From: Lingula anatina | Lineage: Eukaryota; Animalia; Brachiopoda | Length of the DNA: 64,000 nt | Assembly (NCBI GenBank): GCA_051362555.1 | Contig: CM120645.1 | Span: 1,426,001-1,490,000, forward strand | Direction of reading: 5' to 3' | In this document: positions 2,000 through 52,215 of the stretch, piece by piece | Layout: every line of letters starts with the position of its first letter | Position numbering within the stretch: position 1 is the stretch's first letter | Translations under genes and position numbers: made by a program | The notes under the pieces: model-generated | Told to the model about the DNA's origin: nothing | Database searches by the model: none | What the model saw: only the letters and a program-made list of their open reading frames with translations

Positions 2000-2000
2000 A

Positions 2001-13073: not shown

Positions 13074-13171
<98 letters not shown>

Positions 13172-16962: not shown

Positions 16963-17054
16963 TTTCTCAGGCCCAGAGCCTCAATCATAGTGGCAAATGA
17001 TGCCCTATATATTTATCTAAGGTTAGCCATACTTTGGTAGCGACTGCTTAACTA

Positions 17055-21949: not shown

Positions 21950-23334
21950 TCACTCACATTCCATTCCCTCCTCTATTCTTGCCAGTTTGATGTTAAAACA
22001 TTCAAAAATTGGCCAAATGGGTGACATCAAAGTAGAATGATAAGAGGTCTTTGCCACCACCATTCCCACTGGATGAGGGCTTTTATGTCTATCTGGTCCC
22101 TTTAACAGGAATACTGCAGCGCCAGAGTCTCCCTCGTCAGAAAACACGCAGTCAACACCACGCACCTCGACCACATTTCGAAATTCTTTTTCAAGATATG
22201 TAAATGTACCACCTGGTTGCTCCTTCTTAAATTTTATAGTTTTTGTTTGGAAAGCAGTGCCTCCTTCAAAACTGACACAACCACGGGTGAGACCAGTCCT
22301 ACCACATTTGTACACAACTACATTGGGGCTTAAAACTGTATTGGTTTCATTGTTCATTGGTTCAATGCATTCCGCATTGTTAAAGGACAATTCATCTTCA
22401 CTAAGATTAAGATTTTGCAATGTTTCAGGCGTTAACCCTGCTGGTACAGCATGGATATCTCTATGCTTGACTTCGATAAGAGCTGCATCAATGCCATATT
22501 CTTTACCATTATATTCAAAATTGTCAAAGTAAACTTTTTTGACTACACCACACACTTTGCTTTTGGCTTTAGATGCAATATCTTGCTTGTTGTAGTTGTT
22601 TGTCCTTACATCTGCATCAGACGGTTGGCAGACCTCAGCCTCTATGGCAGGTGGTGGGATGCCTAATACATGGGAGCATGTGAGGAAACATGGTGTCCCC
22701 TCATGTTGTACGAACATTCCCAAGGTACCCGTAAAACTCGATTTTGTCAGTCCAACACTGCATCCCATCCTCAATGGGTTACAGTAAAATGTAGTATTTT
22801 GGCCAAAGTGCACATTTTGTGGGGTTTGTGGGCTACTATTATGCATGGACAAGGAAACAAATCCTTCGCGTACATCTACTGGAATACCTTCAATTAACTT
22901 TGGAAACAGGGAATCACCCAATGGGACCACACCTTTTGCGCGACAATATAATACTATACATGGTTTACATGTTATTTCACCTCCTTGCGCTTTAACAGGA
23001 GATGCCGAAATTATTGTCAGATTTCTGTGGTTTTTAAAAAGATGTTCTGAAGACTTTTGTATGGCCTGTCCAATTTCAATAGATGTTCTGGGTGGAATCG
23101 GGTTGTCTTCAGCTGCTTTTGAAAAGAAGGCCTTCTGGGCTTCCATATCTGGCAGGTCCCATGAATAGTAATTAACAGCAAATCCATCATGTTCTGCCAT
23201 CTTATCTTCACAGAATTCTATGCTCACTAGCACTGCAATGAATGGTGGATGCTGTCCATTTGCTTTGTATGCTGGGAAAACGGTCATAACCCCAGGTTTC
23301 CGTGGAAATGAATAGCAAGCCGTTTCAATGGCAT
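21950..23334 (-). CDS. Terminal exon 6 of the NLR-like gene: NAL1-like N-terminal region + trypsin-fold (PA clan) serine protease
   Basis: Pyrimidine tract + tag acceptor at 23335-23336 (phase 1), then an open frame to TGA at 21950. Triad motifs FLTCSHVL, IDAALI and EGDSGAAV. N-terminal PCIVLYCRAKGVVP..FP..IEGIPVDVREG resembles NAL1-type proteases. Confidence 0.85.
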
Positions 23335-24283
23335 CTACAAAAACAAAACAAAAATAAATAAATACAATCGTTAATGGCTCATTATAGCTACTAAGCTGAG
23401 CTTTTCCACAGTGAAAAACGCTATTGTGAAAAATGTCCAAAAATGAAAAACCATACAAGTCGAATTAAGACTAGCATCCGTGAACCTTTAATGGGCCACC
23501 GGCAGTGTAACTATTAGCCCGACAGCACTTTGGCAGTATTTCAACACAATCTTGCCAAGTTGACCAACACCTTTACGACCGTCGTCTGTAGACGAGGAAT
23601 ATATTGTAACTTGCCCGGTGTGAACGGAATTGTAGTCCTAGTAATGCAAGTCCTGGGAATGCAAATCCTTGGTCTAGCTTTTCTAGGAACGGATGTCCTA
23701 GAACATACGTTACTAGGAATTAACGTCCGTGGGACATCAGTTTACAAGGAATGTAAGTCCCATTGCAAGGAATGCAAGTCCGGATGGGACCTGTTTTCCT
23801 GATATATACGAGGACATTATGTCCGATTTGACTTTTATCTCGCACTTAAATATATGTTACATATAATTAATAATAATATATATGTATTAAAGTGACCTTT
23901 GCCGTTACCTTTATTATTTTGATGTTCACAAACTGAATGAAAAAACAAAAATTAATACTGAAAAATAACACAAATAAGAAGTTGTTATAAATTTATTTTC
24001 ATTTAAGTAGGCCCATTCATTTGTCAGATAAATTTTCAAATTCGAGCCGCTGACTGCACCTTAAAGGGTGCATCCTCCTTCTATTTGCAAGATGTACGCT
24101 CCAGTTTGTGATATTCCTTTTATTACATAAGGCCCTAGCCAGGGATCTTCCTGCTTTCCACCTTTTCTGTCTGATCTTCTTAGATTGTGTTTTAGAACCT
24201 TTGTACCTAAGGTAAAAACCTGTGTAATAGATTTAATTATGATAAGCCTTTTTGACATAATTGATAATAATTTAATTAAAATT

Positions 24284-25001
24284 AAAAGCGCAAAAAGTGG
24301 GCTAAAGATGAACACCAGCAAGACAAAGGTGATGTTTGGACCACTAACCACCCCTTGCACAGTGAAGGTCAACACCAAAGAGATAGAAGCAGTAGAGGAG
24401 TATATATAACTTGGGCAACGGTTCAGCCTTAGTGACCGAACACTGGAGAAAGAAATCCAACGAAGGATAAAAGCAGGATGGGCAGCATATGGGAAGCACA
24501 ATGACATCTTCAAGAGCAACCTTCCTACCTGCCTGAAAAAGAAAGTGTTCAATGCTTGTGTGCTGCCGGCAATCACCTATGGTTCAGAGACCTGGACACT
24601 GGATGCCTCCATGGAACACAAGCTACAAGTAGCTCAGAGAAAGGTGGAAAGGATTATGTTGAACATCAGTCCAAGAGAGCGGAAAACGAATGCATGGTTA
24701 CGTACTGCTCACAGTTAAAGAAATGAAATGGAGGTGGGCAGGACATGTCAAAAGAATGAAGGACAGTAGGTGGACAATCAGGCTTACAGAGTGGACCCCA
24801 AGGTATGGACAAAGAAAAAGAGGAAGGCCGGTCAAACGATGGAGGGATGAATTAGATGACTACTGGAAGTCTTAGAAGAAGAAACCTTGGCCAAACTGGA
24901 AATCTGAGGCTCAGGATAGGAAACAATGGAAAAAGGATGCTGAGGCCTTTGTCCAACAGTGGAACACTATAGGCTCTAAATGATGATAAATGATGATGAT
25001 G
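24284..25001 (+). mobile_element. 5'-truncated RTE-clade LINE
   Basis: RT C-terminal motifs GLKMNTSKTKVM, EIQRRIKAGW, YGSETWTL, KWRWAGHVKRM and RGRPVKRWRD; (TGA)n tail; aattaaaatt TSD at 24274-24283 and 25002-25011. Confidence 0.9.
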
Positions 25002-25765
25002 AATTAAAATTTATAAAAATGGAAATTGAGCAAAAAATAAGCATACATAACCTCAGGCAAACGGTGTACTTATAACGGTCGTAATATGTGAAAGAAAAGT
25101 TTTATTGGTAATGTATATACATATATTAAAAAGAAAATAAACGCAGTGATCACTCACTGAAATGTATTACCTCATTTGTAGAATGGCGAGCATCATATCT
25201 CTTTTTTTTTTTCTTTTTTTTTGCTCTTGTTGTGCCTTTCTTATATTTTCAGTGCTGCCTCTCCCACTGTCTTGTTCATAGTGTCCACCCCTTTTTCCCA
25301 GCGAGCAAATTATGTTGTTTTAACGTTGAAACAACGTTGAACAATAACGTTGAGAACACATTGGATAAACGTTGGATTTGAAAGTTGTGTCAACCTCAGA
25401 TAACAATGTTATATCAATCCCACCCAGCGGGAAATTAGGGGATAATAACTCTTCGTGTGATAGCTATATTTCACAATAAAAACATTGTGAACAACTCAAA
25501 AAACGGCAGTTATAGCTATTATTCTGATGTCTGAGCTTGTCTTCAGATCACGTGACCTCCATCGATAGCTCTACTCAGTTATAATCTCTTAAGAGATTTT
25601 AACAAAAAGCCAAACTTTTTACAAAAAAAACACAGGGACTAACTTTAAATGTAAAAATGGATTCATTAACCATAATTAAGTATGGGGAAATTGCTGTTTA
25701 CTCCAGGAAAATTCATTTTTTGGCCAAAACAAAGAGTTATTATCCCTTTAAGTTAAAATTTCCAA

Positions 25766-25840
<75 letters not shown>

Positions 25841-25996
25841 AAAAGAACAAAAGAACAGCAACTTTTTTTGCCCTGAACGGTTTCTTTCTCTCTTCAGGGG
25901 GTTTTGTTTATTTGTTACTAGGTGATATCATAAAGGCTAAAATGTGACGTCTGTAACAATGGGTGTTTAATTGTTACTTTTACCAATGAGACAGAT

Positions 25997-26890
25997 GTGT
26001 ATTACAAAACAACAGACACAAAACAATATCTCCCTTTTAACTCGTGTCATCCCAGACACATTAAGCACAACATACCATACAATCTAGCTCGAAGACTATG
26101 CACAATTGTCTCAAATGAAACCATATTAAAACAAAGGCTCAAAGAGCTGGAAGGATTCCTATTAAGGAGACAATACCCAAGACAACTGATACAAAATGGG
26201 ATTAAAAAGGCAAAACAGATACCGAAGAACGACCTGAGGACCACCAAAGACAAAATTAAAAAGAAAGCCATACCATACATATCAACATATAATCCAAAAA
26301 ATCCGGAAGTACACAATGTCATATTTGGAAACTTACCTTTGGTAAAACAAGATGACAAAATGAATGAGATACTAACCGAAATGCAGATTATAAAGAGTAA
26401 GAGACAAAGTCCATCACTAAAGCAAATTTTAACAAAAGCAAAATTTGAGAACAATTCCAGGACAAATGTGGAAACCTCAACAATACGAGTACAGAAATGT
26501 GAGGTACCCAGGTGTGGCACCTGCCCACTAATTAAAGAGGGGAGCCATCTAACATTTAAAAATGGACTTACTTTTAGAATTAAACACCCATTCACCTGCA
26601 CTAGCTCAAGTTTAATTTATGTTTTAACTTGCAGTGGATGCGGTGAGAACTATATAGGACAAACTGGAGACACTCTCCGACATAGAATGACCGTTCACAG
26701 ACAACAAATAAGACAACCTAAATATCAGTGCACGTCTGTGAGTGGGCATATTAGGGAATGCCCTATGAACAAAAACAAGGACTTCACGGTATTCCCATTT
26801 TATAAATTCACTAGGGAAACAACCCAAACAGAAATGGAAATGAAAGAAAATCTATTCATTAATAAGTATAAACCTACATTGAATAGATAA
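25997..26890 (+). CDS. Penelope ORF fragment: RT thumb + GIY-YIG endonuclease
   Basis: VYYKTTDTKQYLPFNSCHPRH, a CxxxxCxxC linker and LIYVLTCSGCGENYIGQTG..LRHRM..H. No ATG, so 5'-truncated. Confidence 0.88.
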   Translation: MYYKTTDTKQYLPFNSCHPRHIKHNIPYNLARRLCTIVSNETILKQRLKELEGFLLRRQYPRQLIQNGIKKAKQIPKNDLRTTKDKIKKKAIPYISTYNPKNPEVHNVIFGNLPLVKQDDKMNEILTEMQIIKSKRQSPSLKQILTKAKFENNSRTNVETSTIRVQKCEVPRCGTCPLIKEGSHLTFKNGLTFRIKHPFTCTSSSLIYVLTCSGCGENYIGQTGDTLRHRMTVHRQQIRQPKYQCTSVSGHIRECPMNKNKDFTVFPFYKFTRETTQTEMEMKENLFINKYKPTLNR

Positions 26891-26980
26891 AAGCATTGGT
26901 AAAAGTAACAATTAAACACCCATTGTTACAGACGTCACATTTTAGCCTTTATGACATCACCTAGTAACAAATAAACAAAA

Positions 26981-27011
26981 CCCCCTGAAGAAAGAAAGAA
27001 ACCGGTCGGGG
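26981..27011 (+). ncRNA. Minimal type-I hammerhead ribozyme-like motif in the Penelope pLTR
   Basis: cccc-CTGAAGA-aagaaa-GAAA-ccgg-TC-gggg: stem I cccc/gggg, both core boxes, palindromic stem III and a GUC site. Stem II does not pair. A variant copy is on the minus strand at 25870-25901. Confidence 0.6.
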
Positions 27012-27091
27012 CAAAAATAGTTGCTGTTCTTTTGTTCTTTTTTTCTTTTATTTATATATAATATTACTCGAACAGGAAAAAACGTTTTTAC

Positions 27092-27132
<41 letters not shown>

Positions 27133-29038
27133 CAAAGTCACAGTCACCTCACCCTGTCTATCGAACTCCATCACATTTACAGCAACTTATTCATCCTAGC
27201 TGACCTTGCAAGGAATTAAGTTTATTGGAATGTATTTCTGAATAACAAGTTAAGAAAATTCACTAGTTAACTAAAGACATAAAACAACTATCAATTTTAC
27301 TTTAAAACCATTTTGTTATTATATTGATAAATTTAGTTACAGTATTGATTAACAAAGTATCACGTTTTCAATAATTAATATTTTAAATCATAATCCATAA
27401 CTGCAAGGTTGTGTCATTGACCAAAATACAACGTTGAGTCAACGTCACATTATGACGGTGTTTCGACGTGGCTGGATCAACGTTGTTTTACTTTGAATTT
27501 AGGTAGATCAACGGCAATTCAACGTATCAACCTGTTTTCAACATTGATCCAACGCAACTATGCCTGCTGGGTTTTCCACTTCTTTTTGACAATCAGAAAC
27601 AGTCGGCACATTTATGCCACTTGGCCCTGGCACTTCCTTACCCTCTTCTCCATCACTTATGCACACATCTGTTGTTGGTAGCTCAGGTTCTCTAGAGCCA
27701 AAATAAATTTTAATTCTATGTACAGTTACCCTTTCCTTAAATTTTATTTATTATATCCATCCGAGATAACCTATAATAAAAAGACGACACTGTTCAATAT
27801 TACTTACATCATTGAAAAAAATATGTGGATATAATCTTTAACAAAACGCCAAATAATTCAATATTTATGGTGAAGAAAATTAAAAATTCCTCTTTATCTC
27901 CCAAACATTAGATAAAAAGGGGAAAACCGAGTCGATGCATGGATGGACGTATTATACGCAAAGACAACATCCCCCAAAACTTCGTCCCAGTGGTGATCAT
28001 CCTGGTATACTTTAACAGCATGTCCTTCATGGTTTGGTTAAAACGTTCTGGAAAAAAGGATAAATCATAAAATTCATCCAATACATAAATGTTATAGAAG
28101 AACATTCACTCATCTCACCAAACTGAAAACTTGTATAGAAGGCATGATAAAGTATGTACCTGTATTATATAAAATGGCCAATCTAACCCTTACCTAAATT
28201 GTGGGCTAAAATAAGTGACAATATATGGCATTACAAACATGTATAAAATGTGTTTATTAAAGAATATCAATAAAACATACCAGTGGGACCATTGCATTGA
28301 GGATGGTAAGCTGTGGTTCTCTTGTGTTTAATTTTGAGGGATGTGGTTATGGAATGTAACCAATTGTTGTTAAACTCCCTTCCCTGGTCAGTTCACATTT
28401 CCTTGGGAAATCCTAAGCCGAAAAAAAAACACTTGATCATGATTGTTCAGTTAACAACTCACTCTGTATGAGATTTTGCGGATATATTACTTTATAATGA
28501 CATATGACATGAAGTAAGTATTATTTTAGTTAATTATATAAATCAATAACTTACACATATAATGGTGCAATCAATCGATGTTTATGAATCAATCTTAATA
28601 TGCCTAAAATGCGACACTTACGTAAAAACAGTTCCAAAAGAAAACTGGCCACACCTGTCGCCTCCTTACTGGGCAATGCGCGTGCCTGGGCCAGTTTGCT
28701 ATAATAGCACATAACAGTGCATGCATATGCATTGCCCGTTTTGGTCTGAGGCATGGGTTCAATGCCAATCTATAAAAATTAAAAAAACAATATTTCATTT
28801 TTGATTTAACTCTAAATTTGTAGAATTTAATTGTTTAAATAACTGCAAAATTAAAGACATCTGATTTCCAAATCTTAAGATTTATATCTTTAAAAGGTAT
28901 AGTGATAAAAATATGATTTTTTCTATATCAATGTTACTGATAAAAATGACTAGATTATTAGATGAATAGGTATGTCTTGTTTACCATCCTCCACGCCTCA
29001 GGCTTATGCACGGCTATGGGGTTAAGCGGTGGACAGCC

Positions 29039-29039
<1 letters not shown>

Positions 29040-29089
<50 letters not shown>

Positions 29090-29103
29090 CTTTTTTTTTT
29101 TTT
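29040..29103. repeat. Poly(T) tract
   Basis: Seen directly. Confidence 0.95.
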
Positions 29104-30189
29104 GTTTGTTTGTTCATTCGTTGACATATGTCACATTTTTAGAGGAATTTTTTAATATCGTCAACTATGTTGGGCCAAAAAAAAACTTTTCTCAACTTTG
29201 ACAAGAGTTTTGCCCCAACCTACATGACCACCTAAATTTTAAACAAAGTAATTGAAAGTAATCGCTTTTGATACACACTTAAATATTTTCAGTGTCAGGA
29301 ATAAACGATAAAAAACAAAGAATTTGATTTTGTGGTAACTGATATTTTTAATCAATAATTAAAATAAATATTTACCAATGGGGGATGCATGAAGTGTTTC
29401 CAAAACTTTCTCTACTTCCTCTCCGTCCCTTACGACTATTCGCCAAAGTTGATCATCATGACCATCACCATAACTGCATTGTCCTTCATCCGAGACGCTT
29501 TCACTTTCCTCTTATTTACTTTATAAAATAGCTTGCCATGTTCAATCGGAAATGATTATTACACTATTATATATATTAATAAATTAAAATTAATGACAGA
29601 ACCTTTCTTCTGTAAGTAAAGTTTGACTGAGAAAAGCAATAATAAGTATTTGTCCTCGGACCCAAAATCCTAGAGGGAGTGGTCCCCCAGACCTAAAATC
29701 CCTTAAATTGTAGTCCCCCGGACCTTAAATACCAGAGATTGTAGTCCCCCGGACACTTATTCCGGGAGCATAGGTCTGACGGACTTACATTACTGGGAAT
29801 GAATGTCTGTGTGTAAGCTAATATTGGAAATGATTTGTATTTTGAACATCATGAAAATTAACTGTAATTGAAAGCTTACTTTATAATTCGACTTGCTAGT
29901 TCTTCGAATTACTCTTTCTGTGTCGGTGTTGTGCCTATCGGATGTGTGCCCTCTTGAAGGTATTAAAATATAACATCTATGTTGGGTCTAGTACGGGTGC
30001 TGTTCGTCCCTTACATGTCCAAAGTCAAGTGAGGGTATGGTATAAGAAAATGAGCGTATTTATAGAAGTGCAAGAAAGCGCGTGACATATGTAACCAGTC
30101 AAAACCATCTGACGTAGCAAAGTAAAATGACCAGCAAACATGACAAAGACATAAAAATCACGCAAATTCTAAAAGCGCAAACTCAGTCT

Positions 30190-30281
30190 TAAAGGGATTC
30201 GAACTCCCTTCAGATTACTCTAAGATTCTGTTCAAGGTGTACATTGTTGTACTGCCTAACCCCTACGCCAGAGAGACTGGC
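30190..30281 (-). other. tRNA-like Pol III A/B-box sequence (SINE head or tRNA relic)
   Basis: Minus strand reads TGGCGTAGGGG (A box) and AGTTCGAATCC (B box); no clear cloverleaf. Confidence 0.5.
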
Positions 30282-30896
30282 ATAGAGACAACTGGCAAAC
30301 CGACGATTTTACGGAGTAATTATATATGCTCACTAAGGCATACTAGTCACGTCACTGGCCTTTACCTCGTAGTGATATAAAAGGACGGACATAAAATAAG
30401 GGCAGACCTCCATTTCGCTGACTAATGTAAACGGAATGCAGGTCCGCCAGGAATAGAAGTCCTATCCATATTTATGACAGGAATACAGGTCCCATTAGGA
30501 CTACTAATCCTAAGGAACAGTGGTCCATAGGAATGCCGCGAACCAGAGGAAATGTGATTGACAATTACATTAGTAATATATACATGTATAAGTAGAACAA
30601 CCAACATTTACACTTTACCAGTGTCACAGATAATTTAAAATTAAAAAAATTAAATAGATTTTCAAAGATACTGGTCTTTGGTTAAAACTATGTACTTTTC
30701 TGTTCTGTGACCCAAAGCTGAAATCAAAGCAATAATTAAAACCAGGTTGTCAAGTAAAATATGCACAAATCAAAGTTCTTCCAGTTCTGAATCTTATTGT
30801 TAAATGCGAGTAATTTGATCCATCTTATAATCAGCCTTTGGTACCTTATTGTACACTGTACCTTTTTACACACAAACACGCATTATAAATCTGTAC

Positions 30897-31052
30897 CTGC
30901 TCTGGGTCCCACATCAACACTGATAGCAGTAGACTCTGTACATATAGTCTGTGTAATTTCCTCTTCTGTTGATGATGGACTCAGATGCTGAGTCTCCACT
31001 ACTTGGCTGACACCTACCATCGATGAAGGTGTGTGTGGCGGATTTGAAGCCA
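30897..31052 (-). CDS. Exon 5 of the NLR-like gene: S/T-rich linker
   Basis: cag acceptor at 31053-31055 and gtacag donor at 30896; 156 bp, phase 1-1, open frame VASNPPHTPSS...VGPRA. Confidence 0.72.
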
Positions 31053-31736
31053 CTGATTGGATGAAATACAATAGAAAGAAGACTAAGGATTACATAGCAT
31101 TATTTTTCTGGAGGATGAAGGAGGATTATCATATTGGGTTGCTTCCACTTTCAATGTTGAAAATAAAGCGGTGACCTTCTGTGGTTTAGAAACCACTTTT
31201 TGAAAAATGAGAGTTAGCTCCTTTTGTCTTCAGGTTTTTTTTATTCCACGAATGCCTACTCGTCAATTATCAAATTAATGTGCCATTTATAGAAATTTAG
31301 AAAACAAAAACCTGATGGGTGTTGAATCTGAAGCTTAGAGAACAATTACCAGAATTGTGCGAAAGTTGATAAAAGTATGAAACTTTCTACAATGAATGAT
31401 CATTGGGTGATTGTCAGCTTTGGATACCCCCTGTAGGGCCGAAATTTATAAGTACCTGGATGAGCGGCTTTAATATGCTGGGTCAGCTTCTTTGTACATC
31501 CAGATTTCACCGAAACGAGCACTACCCTCGTTAATTATGATAATTAGCCGCCTGATTAATATACTATTAAACAATGTCGAGGTATATCAAATGTTCGGCA
31601 TAAACAGCAATTGAATTTCGTAATTGCGCCACTTCCTCACAATAAAAGCGTGTTTTCAATCCATTAAACAGATGTTTGGAGACAAGAATTATAAAAATGG
31701 ACGTGCACCTTTAATCATTATTGGTATTAAACATAC

Positions 31737-33384
31737 CTGGAACTAAAACGGATGCCCCTTCTTTCCGGAGTTGTACAAACTTTGTAAGTTTCTCAGACCA
31801 GGAGGTTAGCTCAGGGTAAAAGTGTTTTCCCCGGGGAAGGTAGACACAGCAGTGTTCTTCGCAGAGTCCAAAACACCAGATGACGAACCCCAATGTGAGT
31901 TGACTCTCTGAAAAATCTTGTTTTGGGAAAGAATATGCAGGTATTGTCTTCCGTGCCACGTGTGTAGCCCAGTTTAAAACTACTGTAGTTGCACTGTAAG
32001 AGAGCCCACACAAAAATAGCAGCACTAAGTCCATGTCATAGAGCTTGTCAAGGGTGTCTAAACTTTCCAAAAACATATCTAAAACGCTGTTGTCTGTATC
32101 TAAAGTCCACGCCAGGTATTTTGCAGCAAAAAACTCTTGAAAGGTTCTGTGCAGAAATGTCACTTCACATTTAATATCGAGGTTGTGGTGTACCTTTGAT
32201 ATGCTGAGGAGACCTGATCTGTACAATTCGCTGACATTAGGGATTGTCTGCAGGTCCTTTTCATCATATATGAGACCCCTATCTGGTTTCACCAGCCCGT
32301 CGTAAGCCAGTTTTCCAAGGCTGATAAAGGTTTGTTCTTCAAATTTTCTAAAACGAGCAGATTCTCCCATTTCATCCTGTTTCCTAATGTTATATCTTTG
32401 TCTTAAAAGCAACTGTATTATTTTCTTGTATAGTAGTGTATATGAAGTTGGCAATGAATCTGTCTGGGCATCGCTTTTTTTATCTTGCCACATGAGACAG
32501 ATGAACAGTAGATGTATTGGGATCTTCACCAGAGACATCAGCTCATTTTCTACTATGTAGCCTACAAGACCCTTCCCTATTGACTTCAAAACACCCGGAC
32601 TCCTAGAACAGGATCTCTGGCCTGACGTCAGTTTCAGGTACTTGTCATATGTCTTTTGATCATCAAAGAATTTAGAAATATATTCAGCAATGTTGTCCAA
32701 TGTCAGCCCAATGATATCATACAAACCGTCTATTATTCGTGGGTTCATTAGTCGTTCTGCCTTCCAAGGACGTGTTGTGATGATGGTGCATACATCCTGG
32801 TATCGTCTGCGGTGAATGATGTCTGTGATTTCTTTGGAAGTGTTGATATCATATTCATCATAGCCATCAAAGACCAATAGAACATGGTCACTGTCATAGT
32901 CTAGGGCCTGCATGACTTCATTTATCACTGCTTTCCTTTCTGCAAAACAAGGAATTTGCATTTCCATTGCTTCCTTCAGTGTCTGATGAGGCAGAATCCT
33001 ACGCAGATTCAAAATTAAAAGGTATTTAAAGTTTGAAAATACTTCATCACATTCTTTTAAACCCAGTGTATCATTTGCCCAGTCTGTTGCCATCTTTTGT
33101 GTAAATGTGGTTTTGCCGGTGCCTGCTTCTCCTTTGACCAATATTCTTTTTGGCATTTTTCCTTGTTTGGTATCTTTAAACATTGAAGTGTAGCTCTGGA
33201 TTGGAACAAAATTGGCACCTTCAGGTCTCCTTTCCTCTCTTACCCACTGCAGGTTAACATACACGTCATCTAAGTGCTCGGTGTCGTCGGGGTCCCACGG
33301 AAGACGCTGTATCTCGCTCAAGTGACGGATGTAGAATTCGGCTAGTTGCTTGTTTTTTGACTCTGCAGGACTCGTTTTAGGCAC
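31737..33384 (-). CDS. Exon 4 of the NLR-like gene: NACHT NTPase with HD1, winged helix and HD2
   Basis: Walker A GEAGTGKTT, Walker B LLVFDGYDE, sensor-1 ITTRP and winged-helix FLHRTFQEFFAA. Acceptor ttttaag (phase 0); donor gtatgt at 31736 (phase 1). Confidence 0.95.
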
Positions 33385-34414
33385 CTTAAAATAGATAACA
33401 CATCCAAGGTTTTATATTTAGCTAGGTAATATAAGAGGCAAAATGCAACCTTCAACTGAAATGAAAGGCATTATATTGCTCGCGCCGTGTTTTTATTTCA
33501 AATAATGTTGGAAAAGTATAGGGACAGGCAACATTTATTATGAAAATCTAAATAAGATATATTTCAGTGGAAACATGTATAATGTACACCGTATATCAAA
33601 ACCAAATAAAAGTTAAATAAAACATTGCCACACAAATGCTAATTACAACAATATAGGTAGGTGATTTAACATAAAAAGTTGAATAATAAACCTCACTGAA
33701 CTGAAACTGAAACATTTTGCTTTATCCGTCCCTGTACTCATCATGAATTACTAGCACAAGTATACAGGAGCCTCTGTGGATACCCCCCCCCCCCACCACC
33801 ACCACCACCCTCCCGGGGTCCCAGGGAAGACGCCGTATTTGACTCATGTATTTAATGCAGAAAGTTTTTACTACTGCAAGCAGTTGGACTAATTGCAGGT
33901 GCCTGAAAATCGGTTAATGAATTAAAAATAAAAGGCTGCATATGAAATTTTATATTTTCATTATTATTATTATTATATTATTATACCTGCTTAATGTGCC
34001 CTTACTTGAGATGAAAAAAGTCAGAAAGCAATAGTAGACTGGTGGGATAAGGTAAAATATAAGTTATTATCTTCAAGATAATTTGAAAAGCTCAATAAGA
34101 TATGTCAATATAAGCTTAATCACAGTACAACACAAATGAAAAAATTGGGTAAATCAACAAAAATACATGACCGGTCTTAATATAAATAAGTTTTAGAATA
34201 ACATTGATTGAACTTCTGCAATGCAATATAGCACACGTCCAAATGCATAGGGTCCAATACACTAGTACATACGGACTTATCATCAACATGCTAGTATATG
34301 ATCTTGGAAAAGTGGGCAAAACGACGAGGAGAGTTCTAACGTACATAATGTTTAACATTATCATTTAGACATAAGTGCTGAGAACACAGTAAAGGAATAA
34401 AGTTCTGAGCGTAC

Positions 34415-34452
34415 CTGATAGGTGGTATCTGGTTTACTTTTTTGTTTTTTGC
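34415..34452 (-). CDS. Exon 3 of the NLR-like gene (38 bp)
   Basis: ttttgcag acceptor and gtacgc donor; phase 1 in, phase 0 out, which is what is needed to join exon 2 to the NACHT exon. Encodes GKKQKSKPDTTYQ. Confidence 0.65.
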
Positions 34453-35280
34453 CTGCAAAAGAAAATTATTCTGTTGAAATAGCATCAATACATGCACAAA
34501 CTCCACATGCCAACGCCACGTAACGTTTTCAGTTCACACACACCGATAACTGGTAATTTGTTATTTAAAATGGTTTGCCATTGTGTATTCTTCAATATGA
34601 AAAAAATTTAACTTGTCGATCATTTTACTGCTATCAAACCATTACTTTCGTACCCCTTGTATATACACCGTTTAAATGGATATAATTATGATATGATAAC
34701 ATGACGATCATCACATATTCTGGACTCTGCTAAACTGCAATCAAATTCTCCAGTGTGGAATTGCAAATCCTGTACAACTATGAAAGAGAGAATTGCGTGC
34801 AAATTTACAATGTGATCAAAAGTTAAACAACAGATTGATTATTTCACACACACACCCCAGTGTCAAGGTCATTATTTGAAATGCCAAAGGGGCTGTGTAG
34901 TTTTCTTGCATATTCCATAAATATTTAATTCGATTGACGAACGAGAACGAGGCCAAGGAGGAGACAACGACCGTAAGAGAGCTCCTAGAATTTCTTACAA
35001 ATTCAAACAATCGGTAAGAAATATTACAGCTATGGATACATAAATGTGTGAATACTAACTGTCTCCTGCGAATGGAAGCTGTTTAGCTGACTTGGTTTTT
35101 GTCATCAAGCTTTATTTTGACATTGATCATAACGTATACCATAACTATACAACTGACAATAGATCGTGACAAGTGCGCTTCAATACAGGTGCATCGGTGA
35201 GTACTGCTCACCGGATAAACAATAGTTTCAAGTCAGCCTTATTGCCTCGAAAACACATATCTCTCTCTATATATATCACA

Positions 35281-36216
35281 ATGAGCTCAAATAATAAATC
35301 AAAATACTTTGATACGATCAAAGATTCAAAGAGCTCTATGACAGACCGAATGAAAACCACAGCTGACAAGAAATCCACCAGTCAGCCAGCAAAAAGATCC
35401 CATAGTGAGGTTTCTAACACAAGTACAGAAGAAACATCTTTGATTTTGATAAAGCTAGACGAAATAGAATCTGAAATCAAAAATACTGTAAAAACAAATG
35501 ATCTAAAAGATATTGTGCAAGAAATGGTCACGGAAACTGTCACTAAACTTTTACTTAATTTCAAAGACGAAATCGGGACAAATCTTGAAAAATTAGAAGA
35601 CAAGCATAAATTAGATATTGGAGAGCTAAGGGAAAGAATCGATTCACTGGAATTGGAAAATGACGCTCTCCGAGAACAGCTAGCGGGAAAAGAAAAGTCT
35701 CTCAGAAAGCTCACGGAAACAGTGGAGCAAGCAAACTATGCGTCAAACAATGCTATCAAAATGGCGAACTATAATGAACAATATTCCCGGAAAAATAACA
35801 TAAAAATCTACGGGGTGATAGAGAAGGAACATGAAAACACTCGGGATGTTGTGTGCAAGGTGCTTAAGGAACAGGGAGAAGTACAGATAACGGCTGATGA
35901 CATCACGGCGGTGCACAGAATTCCCGGTCGGCAAGGGTCTCCCCGGCCAATTCTAATGCATGTTAAAAACACGGAAATCAAGGTACGTATAATGCGGAGT
36001 AGATCTACCTTGAAAAGTCATGACAAAGGTGTTCGGCTGGCTGACGATATCACCAAGCTAAACGCTCAATTACTGCAGCGCCTAAAGGAAAACGAGCAAA
36101 TTGAACAGTCGTGGTTTTATAATGGGAGCGTGTACGGTAAAGTGAAACACACTGGCCAGAGAATGAGATTTTCTATTGACGATGACATTGACAAGAAAGT
36201 TAAAATAAGAAAATAA
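35281..36216 (+). CDS. LINE ORF1p (coiled coil + RRM-like + CTD)
   Basis: ATG at 35281; coiled coil followed by EQYSRKNNIKIYGV, HRIPG..PRPIL, DDIT and WFYNGSVY motifs typical of L1-like ORF1. Confidence 0.9.
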   Translation: MSSNNKSKYFDTIKDSKSSMTDRMKTTADKKSTSQPAKRSHSEVSNTSTEETSLILIKLDEIESEIKNTVKTNDLKDIVQEMVTETVTKLLLNFKDEIGTNLEKLEDKHKLDIGELRERIDSLELENDALREQLAGKEKSLRKLTETVEQANYASNNAIKMANYNEQYSRKNNIKIYGVIEKEHENTRDVVCKVLKEQGEVQITADDITAVHRIPGRQGSPRPILMHVKNTEIKVRIMRSRSTLKSHDKGVRLADDITKLNAQLLQRLKENEQIEQSWFYNGSVYGKVKHTGQRMRFSIDDDIDKKVKIRK

Positions 36217-36912
36217 AACATTAAACCAAATATATTTTGATTAAAAACGAATATATGATGAGTTACATTTCATTCTCCTTCTATACAAATATGCTTTATT
36301 ACTTAAGGAGGAGATTGGATCTAGTGGAAACTATATGAATTCTCTCTTGATACTGGTATGTGATATATTGTTTAGTAGTTTACGTACCCCCTTGAATACT
36401 GCTACAGTCTGGAGGTACGCCTGTGCCAGTGGTATAGAAACTATATGTCATTTCTCTAGATTACTATGTGTTTACTGTTTTACCTCTCTGAAAGACCTGA
36501 TATATATGAAACTTAGTGGATGTATGTAAAAGAGTAACGGATGGCTTTACTGCTGCCTGAACTCATTACGTCAATTCTTAAAAAAAAAAATATCTACATA
36601 TACGAAAATGAGATTGTGTAAATATTGGATAATTACATGAACATTGTTTTTTGCAGAGACAGAGGGGTTTTCCTGTTTGTACTGTATGTAGTCATGCTAT
36701 CATTCGCAGGATAGGCAACAGCTGTCCGAAGAGGGGGCCTCCTGATATATGTGTTTACCACTCAGTGTTGTACCTTTAATGTTTGTCTGTGGTGTCGATT
36801 TGTGTGAATGGGTGAATGTATGTGTTTATAATTACGTGTTGATAATGCCTAGACTACTTGCGGAAGTATCGTCCTTTTTATTGGTTAAATATTTGTTATT
36901 AGATTCTAAGTA

Positions 36913-39900
36913 ATGGTTAAAATAGTAAGTCTGAATTGTCGAGGACTCAGTAGCAATATGGTGAAAAGGAGAGATATTTTTCATAAATGCAGGTCCAAAT
37001 ATGACATCGCTATATTGATTGATACTCACAGTGAGAAGAAAAACGAAAGTTTGTGGAAAAATGAATGGGGTGGGGACGCGGTTTTTTGTTCACTAACTAG
37101 TTACAAAAGAGGTGTTGGCATCTTATTCAAATCTTCCTTTGACTTTAAAATCCACAAAGAGATTAAAGATCCTAGAGGGAGTTACCTATTACTAGACATT
37201 GAAATTCAGGGCACGAGACTCACGCTAGGCGCTATTTATGGACCAAACAATGACGATCCGTCTTTCTTTAAGGAGATCCAAAATAAAATTGAAGTAATTG
37301 GAAATACCTCAATAATACTTGGGGGGGACTGGAACGTACCACTTGATTACATAACTGACACCGATAATTACCTACACAACAACAACACAAAGGCAAACCG
37401 AGAAATTGTCCGCATAATGGACAGTTTGGATTTAATTGATATCTGGCGAGAAATGAATGCGGAATGTAGAAAATTTACGTGGTTTGGACCAAATAAGAAA
37501 AAAAGCAGACTTGACTATTTTTTGATTTCTTCTGATTTACAAGACATAGCTGTTGCTGCTGGCATGGATTTTGCTTATAAATCAGACCACTCTCCAGTAA
37601 ACATGGAGATTAATTTTATTCAAATTGAAAGAGGAAGGGGGACGTGGAAATTCAACAACAGTCTGTTAGGCGATTGGAATTATGTAAACTTAATTAAAAA
37701 AACCATAAAAGAAGTGATAAAGCAGTACAGGACAGACGATAATGAAAACGTGGAAATGGCAGAATTTAATATTGACGATTGTTTACTATGGGAAACCTTA
37801 AAATTTAGTATTAGAGGTGAAACGATTAAATACGCATCCTATAAAAAGAGAGAAGCAGAAAAAGAAGAAAAAATAATAAGTGAAGAATTGAACAAATTAT
37901 ATGACTCTCTAAACAACAGGGATGATGAGACTATTCGGTTGGCAATTCGGGGAAAAGAAGATGAATTGAAAAGTATACGTGACAAAAAAATTGAGGGGAT
38001 TATTTTAAGGGCAAAAGCAAAATGGAAAGTAGAAGGAGTAAAAAGTTCAAAATATTTTCTTAATTTAGAAAAAAGGAATTATTGTGAGAAATCGATATCT
38101 AAATTGAGGAGGAAGGACGGAAAAGAAATAACAAATATTCACGATATCTTAAAAGAACAAAAAAGCTACTATAGCGATTTATACCAATCAAAAGACACTC
38201 TAATGGATAACGTCCATACTTATACCTTTTTCAATGACGAAAATCCATTTATTAAAAAACTTCCAGAAGAAAAAAAGATCACTATGAATGGCTCTCTGTC
38301 CCAAACAGAATGTCTCAAAGTACTTAAGAAAATGAAGAATGGAAAATCTCCTGGTTTAGATGGCTATACGGTAGAATTCTATAAATTCTTTTGGACTGAT
38401 CTTAAAGAGCCTCTGCTTAGGTCACTGAATAAATCCTTTGAGGTACAGTCAATGTCTACATCTCAACGCCAAGGTATAATCAAGTGTATACCAAAAGAGG
38501 GGAAGGAGAAAGTATTCCTTAAGAATTGGCGTCCAATTACTTTGCTGAATGTTGATTACAAACTTGCTTCTGCTTGCATAGCAGCCAGAATCCAATTACA
38601 CATTGACGATATAATCTCTTTTACACAGGCTGGATTTGTTAAAGGTCGGTATATAGGCGAATGCTCCAGAACTATTCAAGATATCATCCATAAAACAGAA
38701 AAAGATGACATTTCAGGAATTTTATTAATGCTAGATTTCGAAAAAGCTTTTGATTCTGTAGAGTGGGCATATATTTTGCAGTGTCTTAAATTTTTAAATT
38801 TTAGTGAAGATATTCAAAACTGGTTCAAAACCCTTTACTCCAATGTTTCCACTGCAGTGGAAAATAATGGACATCTAACAGAATTCTTTAATGTCAGTCG
38901 GGGTGTTAGACAGGGTGATCCTCTGTCCCCTTACATATTTATTATCTGCATAGAATTGCTCAGCGCGGCGGTCAAATTTGATCCAAACATAAAAGGGATC
39001 TTACTGAATAACTCAGAATACGTCATTACACAATACGCAGATGACTCTACGCTCCATCTAGCAGATGATAGAGAGTCATTGAATGCAGCTCTGGATATGC
39101 TAGAATTGTTCTCTCAATGTTCAGGATTGAAAATAAACTTTGAAAAAAGCCAGGCTGTTTGGATTGGAGCAAAGCGCTGCTGTGGTGAGGAGTATCAAAC
39201 CTCTAAAAGTATATTTTGGAATCATAGTGGGAAATTTAAACTACTGGGTATTTGGTATAACCTAGCAAAGGATGACATTTATGAAGAAAATTTTAAAGAA
39301 AAATTACATTCCATCAAATCGTTGTTAAATGATTGGTCGTTCCGTCATATTTCACTCCTAGGTAAAGTAACTATTTTAAAATCCTTGGCACTCCCTACCA
39401 TCATCCAAATATTAACTGTCCTTCCTATGCCTGCTGATCTTTTTTTTAAAGAATTGGAGCGAGTTTTTTATCGCTTTATTTGGAACAGTAAAATAGATAA
39501 AGTTAAGAGAAATGTTATGATTAATTCTTATGAAAACGGTGGATTAAAGGTCCCCGAGGTGAAACCCTTCTGTAAAGCTCTTAAATTGATATGGCTAAAG
39601 AAATTGGTAAATCCACATAATTGTTCTTCGTGGAAAACTCTTTTGATGGATGAGATTGCGGAAATCGGGGGAATTGACGTATTGCTACTTCCCTTGAAGG
39701 GCCTACAGTCTATACGCAATATTAATATACTAAATACTTTCTGGAAAGAGATTTTGGGGATATGGGCTTCTGTGCAAGAATTTTCTACTACTTCTCCGGA
39801 TGATATCCTAGCACAACCTTTATGGGGAAATGATCATATTAAGATCAATAAAAAGATAATCTTCTATAAACTTTGGTTTCGAAAAGGAGTGCTTTACGTT

Positions 39901-40719
39901 AATGACCTGATTGATAATACTGGTTCAGTAAAAAGTCTAGACGTTTTTTGTGATGAATATAATATAGATTGTAATTTCCTTGACTATCAAGCCGTCATCA
40001 GCGCTTTACCTTCTGCCTGGAAAACTGTTATAAGAGGGTGTCAAAAGAATCTTGCAGCAATAACAAATAAAAATCTCGTATTATTAAAATCGAAAAACAA
40101 ATTAACAAAACTCTTTTACCCGAAATTTATTTCGGATAAGGAAGCAATACCTCTTAACATCCATAATAAGTGGATGGAAAAGCTGAACATTGATTTACCA
40201 AGTGAAAAGTGGAAGCTAGTTCATGCATTGCCCTTTCGAGAAACCAATGATCATAAACTTCTCACATTGCAATTTAGAATTTTACATAGAATTTATTTTA
40301 CGAACTCGATGCTTTTTAAATACAATATGTTAGAACATGAGCGATGCACTTTCTGTAATGACCCAAAAGAAACTTTATTGCATATTTTCTGGGACTGTAC
40401 ATATGTTCAAGCTATTTGGACTTGTCTCATTCAGAACCTACGTACACAGTACTCTGTTGAATTAAAACAACAACCGTGCTTGTTTATATTTGGAATCCTG
40501 GACGACAGCCCTCTCTTAGGTATTAATCTACTACTTCTCTATATAAAGAAATATTTCACTTTATGTAGACAGAATAAAATTACACCTCTTTGGAATGCCT
40601 GCAAAAAGTATTTGGAAAAGCAAAAGATAATAGATTTTCAATCTTTATACCTACTGGGTCCTCAAAAGGCAGATAATCTAAGGAAAAAATGGGACAGTAT
40701 AGAAAAAATATTGATATGA
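36913..40719 (+). CDS. LINE ORF2p: APE endonuclease + reverse transcriptase + C-terminal Cys/His knuckle
   Basis: SLNCRGL, GGDWN, SRLDYFL, SDH; SPGLDG, LDFEKAFD, RQGDPLSP, YADD; CTFC...HIFWDC. Uninterrupted 1268 aa. Confidence 0.97.
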   Translation: MVKIVSLNCRGLSSNMVKRRDIFHKCRSKYDIAILIDTHSEKKNESLWKNEWGGDAVFCSLTSYKRGVGILFKSSFDFKIHKEIKDPRGSYLLLDIEIQGTRLTLGAIYGPNNDDPSFFKEIQNKIEVIGNTSIILGGDWNVPLDYITDTDNYLHNNNTKANREIVRIMDSLDLIDIWREMNAECRKFTWFGPNKKKSRLDYFLISSDLQDIAVAAGMDFAYKSDHSPVNMEINFIQIERGRGTWKFNNSLLGDWNYVNLIKKTIKEVIKQYRTDDNENVEMAEFNIDDCLLWETLKFSIRGETIKYASYKKREAEKEEKIISEELNKLYDSLNNRDDETIRLAIRGKEDELKSIRDKKIEGIILRAKAKWKVEGVKSSKYFLNLEKRNYCEKSISKLRRKDGKEITNIHDILKEQKSYYSDLYQSKDTLMDNVHTYTFFNDENPFIKKLPEEKKITMNGSLSQTECLKVLKKMKNGKSPGLDGYTVEFYKFFWTDLKEPLLRSLNKSFEVQSMSTSQRQGIIKCIPKEGKEKVFLKNWRPITLLNVDYKLASACIAARIQLHIDDIISFTQAGFVKGRYIGECSRTIQDIIHKTEKDDISGILLMLDFEKAFDSVEWAYILQCLKFLNFSEDIQNWFKTLYSNVSTAVENNGHLTEFFNVSRGVRQGDPLSPYIFIICIELLSAAVKFDPNIKGILLNNSEYVITQYADDSTLHLADDRESLNAALDMLELFSQCSGLKINFEKSQAVWIGAKRCCGEEYQTSKSIFWNHSGKFKLLGIWYNLAKDDIYEENFKEKLHSIKSLLNDWSFRHISLLGKVTILKSLALPTIIQILTVLPMPADLFFKELERVFYRFIWNSKIDKVKRNVMINSYENGGLKVPEVKPFCKALKLIWLKKLVNPHNCSSWKTLLMDEIAEIGGIDVLLLPLKGLQSIRNINILNTFWKEILGIWASVQEFSTTSPDDILAQPLWGNDHIKINKKIIFYKLWFRKGVLYVNDLIDNTGSVKSLDVFCDEYNIDCNFLDYQAVISALPSAWKTVIRGCQKNLAAITNKNLVLLKSKNKLTKLFYPKFISDKEAIPLNIHNKWMEKLNIDLPSEKWKLVHALPFRETNDHKLLTLQFRILHRIYFTNSMLFKYNMLEHERCTFCNDPKETLLHIFWDCTYVQAIWTCLIQNLRTQYSVELKQQPCLFIFGILDDSPLLGINLLLLYIKKYFTLCRQNKITPLWNACKKYLEKQKIIDFQSLYLLGPQKADNLRKKWDSIEKILI

Positions 40720-40891
40720 ATAAAAAAGAACATTTGTTGTAGACTAGGCCTAATAAGATTCTTTTATTTAAAAATTCTACATGTATTTTTAATCAACATT
40801 TGTAAGAACGTTTGTAGTGTGTGAATGGTGTGTGGAAGGTGTATTTGTCTCTTATTGTGTTGTACATGTCTTGTATTAATTTTTCGTGAAT

Positions 40892-40956
<65 letters not shown>

Positions 40957-41311
40957 ATTCGAGTTGTAAATGACGTACTATTATGCAGAAAACACATATT
41001 GCATTCTTAAACCACTTTAAAAAGAAAATGGTTAAAATGTTCTTTGGTATATAACATGTATATTTTGTGGTATAACCACTCCGAAAATGATAACTGTATG
41101 CAAAGGCGGGAGGGAGGGGGGAGGTCACTCCATTTGAGAGCCTACCACGGTGAATGCACTTTTTGCGTAGTACACAAAACTGCACTTTGATTTATATGAT
41201 CTTCTTGTACTGTGTTATTACTACTTTTGTTACAATATCATTTTTAAAAAGATATCTATTTTTCCCTTGGCTGTATTGCTGCATGATCCGAGGGTTAAAA
41301 TCATACATATA

Positions 41312-41480
41312 TATTTTATTTAAAACACAAGTCAAAGGAAGCCTGGTCATTTTGGCCCTATTGCACACTCTAAGTTGTCGCTCTCACCTCCCTGGGGAGG
41401 GCTGGCATGTCCCTTGACGGGGTCGAACCCACGTCCTCCAGATCCGGAGGCGGACATTCTAAACACAGGGTCATCCGGTC
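41312..41480 (-). mobile_element. tRNA-derived SINE
   Basis: Minus strand has a tRNA-like head with B box GGTTCGACCCC, an unrelated body and an A/T-rich tail. Confidence 0.65.
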
Positions 41481-42042
41481 AGAATTAACATATGATCAAT
41501 GTGTTTTGCTGTACACAATACACGTACTTGTATCGACATACTTACCCTGACCATGGCAATTTGCATACAAAGAAAAACCCTTTCATATGAATTGCCAGCT
41601 TTACATTGATTCACGTGAATGATCGCAAAGCGCAAGGGCGTAACCAGGTTACGCACGAATGCACTGTGCGTAGAATTTTTGGGGATTAACCATGATATTA
41701 TTCTCAATAAAGCAATATACCGTGTAGCATGCTATCTATCCATCAGAGCTTCAGTTTTCACCCGGATATAGGCCCTGGTATTTGGGAAGCCAAACAATTT
41801 TACCCAATGTCTTTAGATATTTCACCCCCTTCCCTCAAATAATCATAATCATCACTTTTCGCAACTGCAATTTTTTATTGTAACACAGTGGGAGTAGAAA
41901 TTTCATCCAATACAGAAAGATTAACTTGACTTAGAACTGTCATTCTTAGAATTGTTTTAATAACAGTATGCATGGTTCAAAGCTTTGTATCTTAGATGGC
42001 GGTTGTTCTCTAACTTTTTCTGAACTATACACATTAGCCTAC

Positions 42043-42111
42043 CTGGATTTTCTTCTAGTGTGGGCGTATCTTGAACCCAGTCACAAATCATCTGAACCTT
42101 TTCTTGAATTC
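42043..42111 (-). CDS. Exon 2 of the NLR-like gene (69 bp)
   Basis: cttttacag acceptor and gtaggc donor; phase 1-1; open frame GIQEKVQMICDWVQDTPTLEENP. Confidence 0.75.
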
Positions 42112-42328
42112 CTGTAAAAGAATGAGGTCTCAAGATGTAAGATCTTTAAAAAGGATTTTTTGCAGCTATATGTCGCTGATGACACTGTCATTACTAACTA
42201 CTCATCCAATCACAAGAGGAATAATGGAAATTAATTAAAACACGTTCCTTTTAGACAAATGTGAACCATAAAGGCAATTTATTGTAAACCTGATTTCAGG
42301 GAAACATATAAAAGCATTGAATACATAC

Positions 42329-42812
42329 CTTTAATGACTTCAAAAGATTGATCATGTGCCAATCTAAGGTTTACAATGTTCTGTACGTAATCTAGTAAGG
42401 TAACATCAAGTTCATAATCCCCACTGGTGAATTTACTAAAGAGAGACAGCAGATTGGACTTGAGACCTGAGAAATGTGCCCTAAACGAGGTGATGTTCCT
42501 TAGCAAAAGCACAATCAGTGTGAGGTCTAAGTCACCAACAGTTACTGATGTGGAGGGATTCCCACCAGGATACAGCTGGTTTCGCTGGTGTTGGTTTAAT
42601 ACCCTTGGTGGCAATCCAAAGAGTTTGTCCCTGACAGTTTTATCACCTAGCACTTTCTTCAGCAACCCCGTGTTTGGGTCAAATAGTTCGGGATACACTG
42701 TCTGAAGCTCTTTGTGAAGAACATCTTGCAAAGCCACCAGGGCATAATTAGAAATCAAAATGCACAAATTATCCCATTCGGAGCAGCCGTTTGTCCCTAG
42801 GGTTGTTGCCAT
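42329..42812 (-). CDS. First coding exon of the NLR-like gene: DZIP3/hRUL138-type HEPN-like domain
   Basis: ATG at 42812 after a cag acceptor at 42848-42850; donor gtatgt at 42328 (phase 1). VLNQHQRNQLYP and DLDLTLIVLLLRNI match the DZIP3-HEPN pattern known at invertebrate NLR N-termini. Confidence 0.8.
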
Positions 42813-52172: not shown

Positions 52173-52215
52173 GATAAACGCACGGAGGAAGTGCGCTCAC
52201 CCACCTTTTCGTTAA

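Follow-up and report, generated by a model that had tools for sequence, protein, structure and literature searches.

A Lingula anatina NLR-type gene with a NAL1-like serine protease exon in the place of its leucine-rich repeats

INTRODUCTION

Animal NLRs are thought to borrow a protease (a caspase) through death-fold adaptors. The question raised by the locus described here is whether a NACHT protein of an animal may come with a serine protease of its own. The locus lies in a 64 000-nt stretch of the genome of the brachiopod Lingula anatina (GenBank assembly GCA_051362555.1, contig CM120645.1, positions 1 426 001 to 1 490 000 of the forward strand; hereafter, the window), where six exons of the minus strand, between positions 42812 and 21950, can be joined into a single gene. 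An initial annotation, made from the letters alone, had interpreted this gene as a HEPN(DZIP3)-like domain, a NACHT domain and a C-terminal trypsin-like protease, with no leucine-rich repeats (LRRs). Our analysis finds an NTPase core of the NLR type followed, in one open frame, by a protease module whose nearest characterized counterpart is the rice protein NAL1.

RESULTS

Exon chain and reading frame

Each of the six exons is preceded by AG and followed by GT at the coordinates given in Table 1, with intron phases 1,1,0,1,1, and the joined exons amount to 3780 nt and 1259 amino acids (aa) with a single terminal stop; the annotated structure thus stands unchanged. A stretch of 460 codons without a stop has a probability of about 4e-15 given the local base composition. 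Exon 6 is a single exon of 1385 nt separated from exon 5 by an intron of 7.5 kb, and its acceptor at 23334 possesses the strongest pyrimidine tract of the five acceptors (14/17). The order of exons 1–3 parallels that of similar segments in the Lingula paralogue P0179. A Lingula anatina RefSeq protein, XP_013389014 (P0001), aligns through exons 4, 5 and 6 and through both of their joins (857/1056 residues identical, 81%); it is a predicted model, and the exon 5–6 join rests on the splice sites and on that one RefSeq model. A phase-1 AG located 36 nt upstream of the exon 1 ATG suggests, from the sequence, an additional 5′ exon. Altogether, the six-exon chain probably forms one gene.

Identity of the protease

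The proposed H-D-S triad was found as H1020, D1081 and S1202 of the 1259-aa product, the GDSG motif occurring as GDSGAA. Conservation of the triad is high: of 85 sequences whose alignment extends over the three positions, 78 have H-D-S and 5 more have H-E-S, and in the family alignment the histidine is kept in 102/102 rows and the serine in 83/85 filled rows. The AlphaFold2 (AF2) model of exon 6 (pLDDT 89.9, pTM 0.90) displays the two-barrel chymotrypsin fold of clan PA, and His, Asp and Ser of the triad come in that order along the sequence. When a profile of the 102-sequence family was used as the query, rice NAL1 came out on top (E 1.3e-14), by a wide margin over bacterial enzymes of the alpha-lytic type. 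NAL1 was also the best match of the AF2 model in Foldseek (E 2.9e-15), in VIA-align [Z 23.1, root mean square deviation (rmsd) 4.7, 312 aligned residues; model 80-458 on NAL1 90-455] and in Atlas features (0.97), where an unnamed, mostly cnidarian cluster is listed as well, along with bacterial NAL1-like clusters at 0.95–0.96. The next structural matches were alpha-lytic-type proteases, and trypsins ranked at a Z of about 12 in VIA-align; the alignment to 5mrt, with the two-barrel fold, gave Z 20.6, rmsd 2.2 and 187 aligned residues. Profile, Foldseek and VIA-align all identify a NAL1-like module and not a plain trypsin.

Exon 6 itself gave no meaningful Pfam match, including to Nal1_C, Trypsin and Peptidase_S64, and nothing was found at E<=10 when its single sequence was searched against the PDB. 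Among 38 relatives scanned, 21 matched Nal1_C at E<=0.01 (3 of them above the cut-off) and 10 matched Peptidase_S64 weakly (1 above the cut-off). Classic secreted S1A trypsins have a signal peptide, an IVGG-type start and a GDSGGP motif; this class was considered and rejected, given the lack of an N-terminal hydrophobic stretch, the GDSGAA motif and the absence of a Pfam Trypsin match.

Like NAL1 (Pfam NAL1_N/Nal1_C; PDB 7y77, 8pmi, 8has), exon 6 combines an accessory domain with a two-barrel serine protease carrying an H-D-S triad, and the motifs GTLG, T-x-x-H, K-x-G-x-T and GDSG are common to both. Since the model aligns from residue 80 over NAL1 from residue 90, the accessory domain must be part of the likeness, albeit by fold and not by sequence (a profile of this domain matched nothing in the PDB or Pfam). 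It is the most conserved part of the module, with 79/82 residues (96%) identical to XP_013389014. In NAL1 the corresponding domain (the ATP-binding domain, ABD; residues 89-172) binds ATP structurally, trimers form through it, and the enzyme is active solely as a hexamer (PMC12012508; this and the sources cited below are represented by parts of their texts). K133 and D153 of exon 6, conserved at 98 and 96% in the family alignment, could correspond to K139 and D166 of NAL1, which contact ATP together with R120, R122 and K123. Exon 6 differs from NAL1 in having an extra pre-domain of 79 aa, in its position behind NACHT and in overall sequence (15-18% identity). A two-copy complex prediction of the protease module, run without an alignment, scored 0.00, a value that carries no weight for or against self-assembly.

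The NACHT core and its lost N-terminal domains

NACHT was matched by Pfam above the cut-off (E 1.2e-17), and the Walker motifs are intact as annotated (A, GEAGTGKT at aa 282; B, LLVFDGYDE at aa 366), as are sensor-1 (TTRP, aa 400), IPIHL (aa 485) and the winged-helix motif FLHRTFQE (aa 607). The best PDB sequence matches of this region are NLRP3 and NLRC4. NLRC4_HD2 was matched at E 2e-4, below the Pfam cut-off, and the XP_013389014 model matches the NLRP3 NACHT over 435-585 columns, with low confidence at the HD2 end. The protein has the NTPase motifs, and HD1, winged helix and HD2 follow its nucleotide-binding domain (NBD); it is a member of the NACHT/NLR family. It is not a canonical tripartite NLR: the spliced protein has no intact N-terminal effector and no C-terminal LRR.

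The HEPN(DZIP3)-like N-terminus is supported by Pfam (HEPN_DZIP3, E 1.3e-13) and is a broken remnant, covering only positions 2-65 of the 144 of the profile. In comparison with P0179, about 47 aa are missing from exon 1 owing to an in-frame loss at 42486/42485 that removed the catalytic segment. In paralogue P0182 this segment holds the R-x4-6-H motif (RNTVYAH), and the sole R-x4-H found (aa 70) sits elsewhere. The possibility of an active HEPN RNase was rejected on the basis of the partial profile and the missing segment. In the HEPN of P0179 itself (P0179 aa 138-147), a Q stands at the expected catalytic R, which makes it possible that activity was lost before the parent HEPN was broken up. 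Exon 4 also lacks the CARD which is found at that place in 5/5 Lingula relatives, and no CARD exon was found anywhere in the window. The N-terminus does not resemble a signal peptide (among 19-mers, hydrophobicity peaks at aa 650, with a score of 1.8).

A stranded LRR-like relic

In four Lingula paralogues (P0178-P0181), CARD and NACHT are followed by a leucine-rich tail, and there is no protease; P0179 adds a HEPN, and its layout, HEPN-CARD-NACHT-LRR-like, is likely the parent one. Around aa 725, exon 4 loses its homology to the LRR-bearing paralogues, and exon 5 duplicates the linker lying upstream of CARD in P0179 and P0181. Downstream of the gene, at a distance of 5 kb, lies an orphan frame that is cut off upstream by repeats and is 38-48% identical to the C-termini of P0178-P0181; the window was found to lack some 130 aa from the middle of this LRR-like region. 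The assignment of this relic to LRRs relies on homology and on Atlas features (LRR proteins 0.93; recognition 2290, just under the mark) and not on its LxxLxL count, which is not separable from that of shuffled sequences (167/500 reach it). A profile of the relic and the paralogue tails matches two LRR-annotated proteins, P0184 (E 1e-4) and P0183 (E 6e-4); Pfam gave only E 0.22 for the relic. That there is no LRR is consequently correct for the spliced protein but not for the locus, where an LRR-like relic follows the stop. The relic may derive from the present gene or from a tandem neighbour, and it could be an alternative last exon, as two phase-1 AG sites (16979 and 16937) would place it in frame. 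The loss of the HEPN core and of CARD, the abrupt end of homology and the stranded relic together indicate that a canonical NLR was truncated and acquired another terminal exon, and the relic kept at the locus makes it a rebuilt canonical NLR. In comparison, XP_013389014 (named 'uncharacterized') has the same chain of NACHT, linker and protease and keeps its CARD; its model is devoid of HEPN.

RNA support

Seven of nine RNA runs, chosen by species label, were aligned, and joint detail was obtained from four of them (X2, X7, X8 and X9). One of the two junctions for which an RNA check had been suggested, 31737>31052 between exons 4 and 5 (CT..AC), is crossed by 2 reads in X8 and 5 in X9, i.e. 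by 7 reads in two of the four runs; it is absent from the reads of X7 and of X2, which is nearly blank. Exon 6 is thinly covered, mainly over its 5′ portion (depth about 3.8 in X7), where XP_013389014 is closest to the window. In X9, 6 reads join an exon-5-type linker upstream of a CARD/NACHT exon, the arrangement that is normal in the paralogues. Neither an exon joint in the first read alignment, which is dominated by repeats, nor a joint into the relic was among the 15 of 31 joints listed. A short repeat at 25439-25751 is covered to very high depth in each of the four runs, by reads that come from other copies of it.

The protease family and its repeated fusions

Among representatives at 50% identity, 599 relatives of the protease module were identified at E<=0.001. 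In the 150 of these that were listed, all named ones belong to Lingula or bivalves, and many are unnamed. The module is found C-terminal to ankyrin, DED, CARD-like, LRR, Roc-COR, nSTAND3, DUF4559, Ig, HSP70 and PARP14-like regions (55 longer relatives scanned, 32 of which gave no family at E<=1e-4). In protease trees of 124 and 40 domains (midpoint rooted; 49/173 rows dropped for short coverage; groups named after the first tree was seen), the window sequence groups with P0001, P0002 and P0010 in a Lingula clade (SH-aLRT 98), and a NACHT fusion of Mercenaria is placed among clam sequences. A single clade of NACHT fusions is rejected by the approximately unbiased (AU) test (p-AU 1e-45; 5e-5 when the four Lingula rows are all included). 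As judged from these sequence trees, the NACHT–protease fusion arose at least twice.

The architecture for which a metazoan search had been suggested, NACHT plus protease, is already present without a name among the RefSeq models of Lingula and of Mercenaria. Mercenaria XP_053378860 (P0063) and Saccostrea XP_062568508 and XP_062572944 each join a STAND (signal transduction ATPase with numerous domains) ATPase to a C-terminal NAL1-like protease with the triad motifs present. P0063 differs from the present gene in starting with DUF4559 and in keeping a leucine-rich-looking middle, and the Saccostrea proteins in having nSTAND3 instead of NACHT; all are on separate branches of the protease tree. 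Within Lingula (P0002, P0088, P0010), a Roc-COR protein and an LRR protein likewise terminate in the module; the LRR protein is P0088, whose protease copy sits on a long, separate branch. In many bivalve members (P0023, P0059, P0063, P0064 and P0009), the protease is followed by a short predicted coiled coil that the Lingula copies do not have, and which could aid self-assembly. Peptide-pattern scans, which detect close relatives only, found none in GTDB genomes, viral contigs or metagenomes (the last scanned with P0036). Two BFVD entries (a viral library), A0A7S9XDX3 and A0A0N9MU75, match the whole NAL1-like module (E 1e-16 and 4e-14).

Other features of the window

The features of the locus are collected in Table 1. 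The long interspersed nuclear element (LINE) of intron 2 has both open reading frames (ORFs) intact and is apparently young. Just upstream of exon 1, 43591-46685 and 49038-52173 form an older tandem duplication (77-81% identity) with no long frame, and 52212-57146 is a tandem duplication of 2470 nt (99.96% identity) which is either very recent or an assembly artefact. At the other end, a 6-kb inverted duplication (1-5966 and 8005-14003; 98.2% identity) flanks a gene of 45-nt tandem repeats. There, 5251-8719 contains two opposed copies of a secreted-looking, mucin-like frame with 15-aa T/E/S/P repeats, and a weak Somatomedin B match lies within 5545-7944.

Table 1. Positions of the exons, motifs and neighbouring elements in the window
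Feature	Position	Strand	Basis or location
Exon 1, degenerate HEPN_DZIP3	42329..42812	-	Pfam, paralogue comparison
Exon 2, 69 nt, resembles QEKVQV segment of P0179	42043..42111	-	paralogue comparison
Exon 3, 38 nt, resembles KPD-T segment preceding the CARD/NACHT exon in P0179 and P0181	34415..34452	-	paralogue comparison
Exon 4, NACHT (NBD-HD1-WHD-HD2) without CARD	31737..33384	-	Pfam, motifs, paralogues
Walker A (exon 4)	33132-33109	-	motif position
Walker B (exon 4)	32880-32854	-	motif position
Exon 5, Ser/Thr/Pro-rich linker, predicted disordered	30897..31052	-	sequence, model
Exon 6, first part: small alpha/beta pre-domain, exon residues 1-79, beyond the NAL1-aligned range	23096..23334	-	predicted model, structure alignment
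Exon 6, domain aligned to the 'ATP-binding domain' range of NAL1	22853..23095	-	structure alignment
Exon 6, chymotrypsin-fold (clan PA) protease domain, stop 21952-21950	21950..22780	-	profile, model, alignment
Triad codon H	22672-22670	-	exon 6
Triad codon D	22489-22487	-	exon 6
Triad codon S	22126-22124	-	exon 6
Pseudo-exon, frameshifted partial duplicate of NACHT exon start, CARD-less	33815..33891	-	intron 3
LINE, full-length; ORF1 348 aa, ORF2 1269 aa with endonuclease, RT (reverse transcriptase), zf-RVT	35170..40719	+	inside intron 2, opposite strand to gene
GIY-YIG fragment, presumably Penelope-like	25934..26890	+	inside intron 5; open frames, Pfam
Orphan open frame, 238 codons, degenerate and LRR-like, from the 3′ end of a Lingula NLR exon	16261..16974	-	paralogue homology

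DISCUSSION

The observations can be read as describing an NLR whose LRR sensor has been replaced by a NAL1-like protease exon with an intact triad, the protease being likely the output and switched on by clustering of NACHT; we judge the chances of this reading to be evenly balanced. The phase-1 terminal exon would have been shuffled in behind a truncated NACHT exon by way of the copied linker exon. The protease may be quiet as a monomer and need self-assembly, as rice NAL1 needs its hexamer. Devoid of LRRs, the protein is probably not a sensor itself and might join assemblies of sibling CARD-NACHT-LRR sensors; held there on a flexible tether, the protease would reach a high local density and would then cut a cytosolic substrate, either a death executor or a pathogen protein. 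The full-length model of P0001 (pTM 0.55) has separate domains with a low-confidence stretch at 565-716 which, as modelled from a shallow alignment, fits such a tether. A role as output is favoured by the family-wide conservation of the triad, the loss of both N-terminal outputs, the dependence of NAL1 on assembly and the existence of a STAND-gated trypsin in bacteria. Activation by NACHT clustering, first raised in the initial annotation, stays the best reading, if a tentative one, with a close bacterial precedent in Avs2-trypsin.

Several points weigh against it. The second junction for which RNA had been suggested, 30897>23334 (exons 5 and 6), was not among the 15 of 31 joints listed, nor among the loose ends listed. 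No read in the four-run alignment was at least 99% alike to the window, so the reads, including those across exons 4 and 5, derive from other alleles or from related copies. Exons 1–3 have no read support, with zero depth over exon 3 in all four runs. The likeness to NAL1 amounts to no more than 15-18% identity, and the alignment does not extend to the strand by which the NAL1 hexamer is held together. Among 172 homologues of the protease, 2 carry NACHT, 3 nSTAND3 and 1 Roc-COR, which means that most copies work without STAND. The known STAND–protease cases keep a repeat sensor and here there is none, leaving the trigger unexplained. Finally, a C-terminal domain would be expected at the rim, and not at the hub, of an NLR ring.

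Part of the same evidence could indicate that the protease is an integrated sensor or bait that took over from the LRRs, with binding of a pathogen inhibitor or cleavage of the long linker freeing NACHT to signal through CARD (in P0001) or through partner NLRs. The protease does occupy the place of the sensor, and the LRR-like relic lies stranded downstream; P0001 keeps its CARD; and when the window is compared with P0001, divergence is faster in the second barrel than in the remainder of the module (123/158 versus 269/301 residues identical; Fisher p 0.001, for a boundary chosen after the alignment was seen). However, the present copy, having lost CARD and the HEPN core, has no output of its own, the triad is kept in 78/85 relatives, and the module also ends proteins that retain their repeats (P0088 with its LRR, ankyrin proteins and P0063), where it reads as an added output. 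We therefore regard a bait as unlikely, and the sensor or decoy option of the initial annotation as the weaker one for this copy, in which HEPN and CARD are both deleted. It is more doubtful still that the protease exon belongs to another transcript, be it that of a gene of its own or that of another, broken NLR copy of which it is the tail (with exon 5 as linker and the relic as LRR), the NACHT exon then ending elsewhere or splicing to the relic. Such an arrangement would suit the 7.5-kb length of intron 5, the AG sites at 16979 and 16937 that would put the relic in frame, the origin of exon 5 as a linker normally upstream of CARD (as in the 6 reads of X9) and P0010, which is modelled as a stand-alone protease. 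But the first residues of P0010 match the intron upstream of the acceptor, suggesting that its model is likely without its 5′ exons; moreover, exons 4 and 5 are bridged by reads, both joins recur in XP_013389014, no other acceptor matches the pyrimidine tract of the one at 23334, and no joint to the relic is among those listed.

It is also conceivable that the locus is a decaying chimera left by NLR birth and death, with little or no transcription and no role. The deletions in HEPN and CARD, the pseudo-exon, the LINE insertions, the orphan LRR-like frame and the low read depth without near-identical reads are what one would expect of such a remnant, but 1259 codons have stayed open with all NACHT and protease motifs preserved, and this in two versions between which 19% of residues have changed; these differences avoid the accessory domain (79/82 identical); decay strikes us as quite improbable. 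The least probable of the explanations weighed here is that the protease cleaves itself at the linker or between its own domains, as Ssy5 and alpha-lytic protease do when processing their pro-regions, NACHT merely holding or placing it. Alpha-lytic-type proteases are indeed next in structure, 10/38 relatives weakly match Peptidase_S64, and upstream of the protease come a variable loop and a long tether modelled with low confidence; the closest match, NAL1, nevertheless retains its accessory domain in the active hexamer.

Replacement of the LRR sensor by a protease output may be one instance of something wider, which we put forward tentatively: an undescribed lophotrochozoan family of cytosolic NAL1-like proteases would act as a mobile, assembly-gated immune effector regrafted onto many scaffolds, and the present gene would be a protease-armed helper NLR, a caspase-independent inflammasome and counterpart of bacterial Avs-trypsin. 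Whatever its function, the family exposed here is a large unnamed one in animals (599 clusters at 50% identity), mostly missed by Pfam and ending many immune-type proteins of farmed bivalves. The locus captures rebuilding in place, with CARD and the HEPN core gone, a linker exon copied, a protease exon added and an LRR-like tail stranded. If the NACHT protein does wield its own serine protease, animals would also use the one-piece STAND–protease design known in bacteria and proposed for fungi.

No description of a NACHT–protease or of a NAL1-like protease in animals was found in a literature search that left most subscription papers and all supplements outside, and databases carry the architecture only as 'uncharacterized', in agreement with its not having been recognized at the outset. 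In the portions of text at hand, Lingula NLRs are described as CARD-NACHT-LRR with no mention of 'protease' or 'trypsin' (PMC11508797), trypsin effectors are named for bacteria only (PMC8195603), and PMC11797021 holds nothing on the NACHT–protease architecture. A doubtful match of Crassostrea gigas to S64 is on record (PMC5567314); our guess is that it is possibly a member of the NAL1-like family.

The gene is a real variant of the STAND-plus-protease kind that has apparently not been described before, and it belongs with a broader protease family that has no name. Its N-terminal side resembles the HEPN_DZIP3-NACHT proteins of bivalves, which likewise carry a DZIP3-like HEPN before NACHT; more than 50 such proteins occur in pearl oyster, 194/202 oyster HEPNs keep R-x4-6-H, and their C-termini are LRR, TPR or WD40, no protease being named in the part of that text available (PMC9646362). 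Fungal S8-NACHT-WD40 NLRs, linked to gasdermin, have a serine protease of their own that is proposed to cut the death executor (bioRxiv 10.1101/2021.06.03.446900, in part), but that protease has a subtilisin fold, is N-terminal and is accompanied by sensor repeats. A close likeness, drawn by description only, is to bacterial Avs2-trypsin-MBL, where a STAND ATPase is fused to a trypsin-fold protease that is activated on tetramerization of the STAND protein (bioRxiv 10.64898/2026.08.25.746987, in part); the bacterial protein differs in keeping a TPR sensor and in having a known substrate in the same system.

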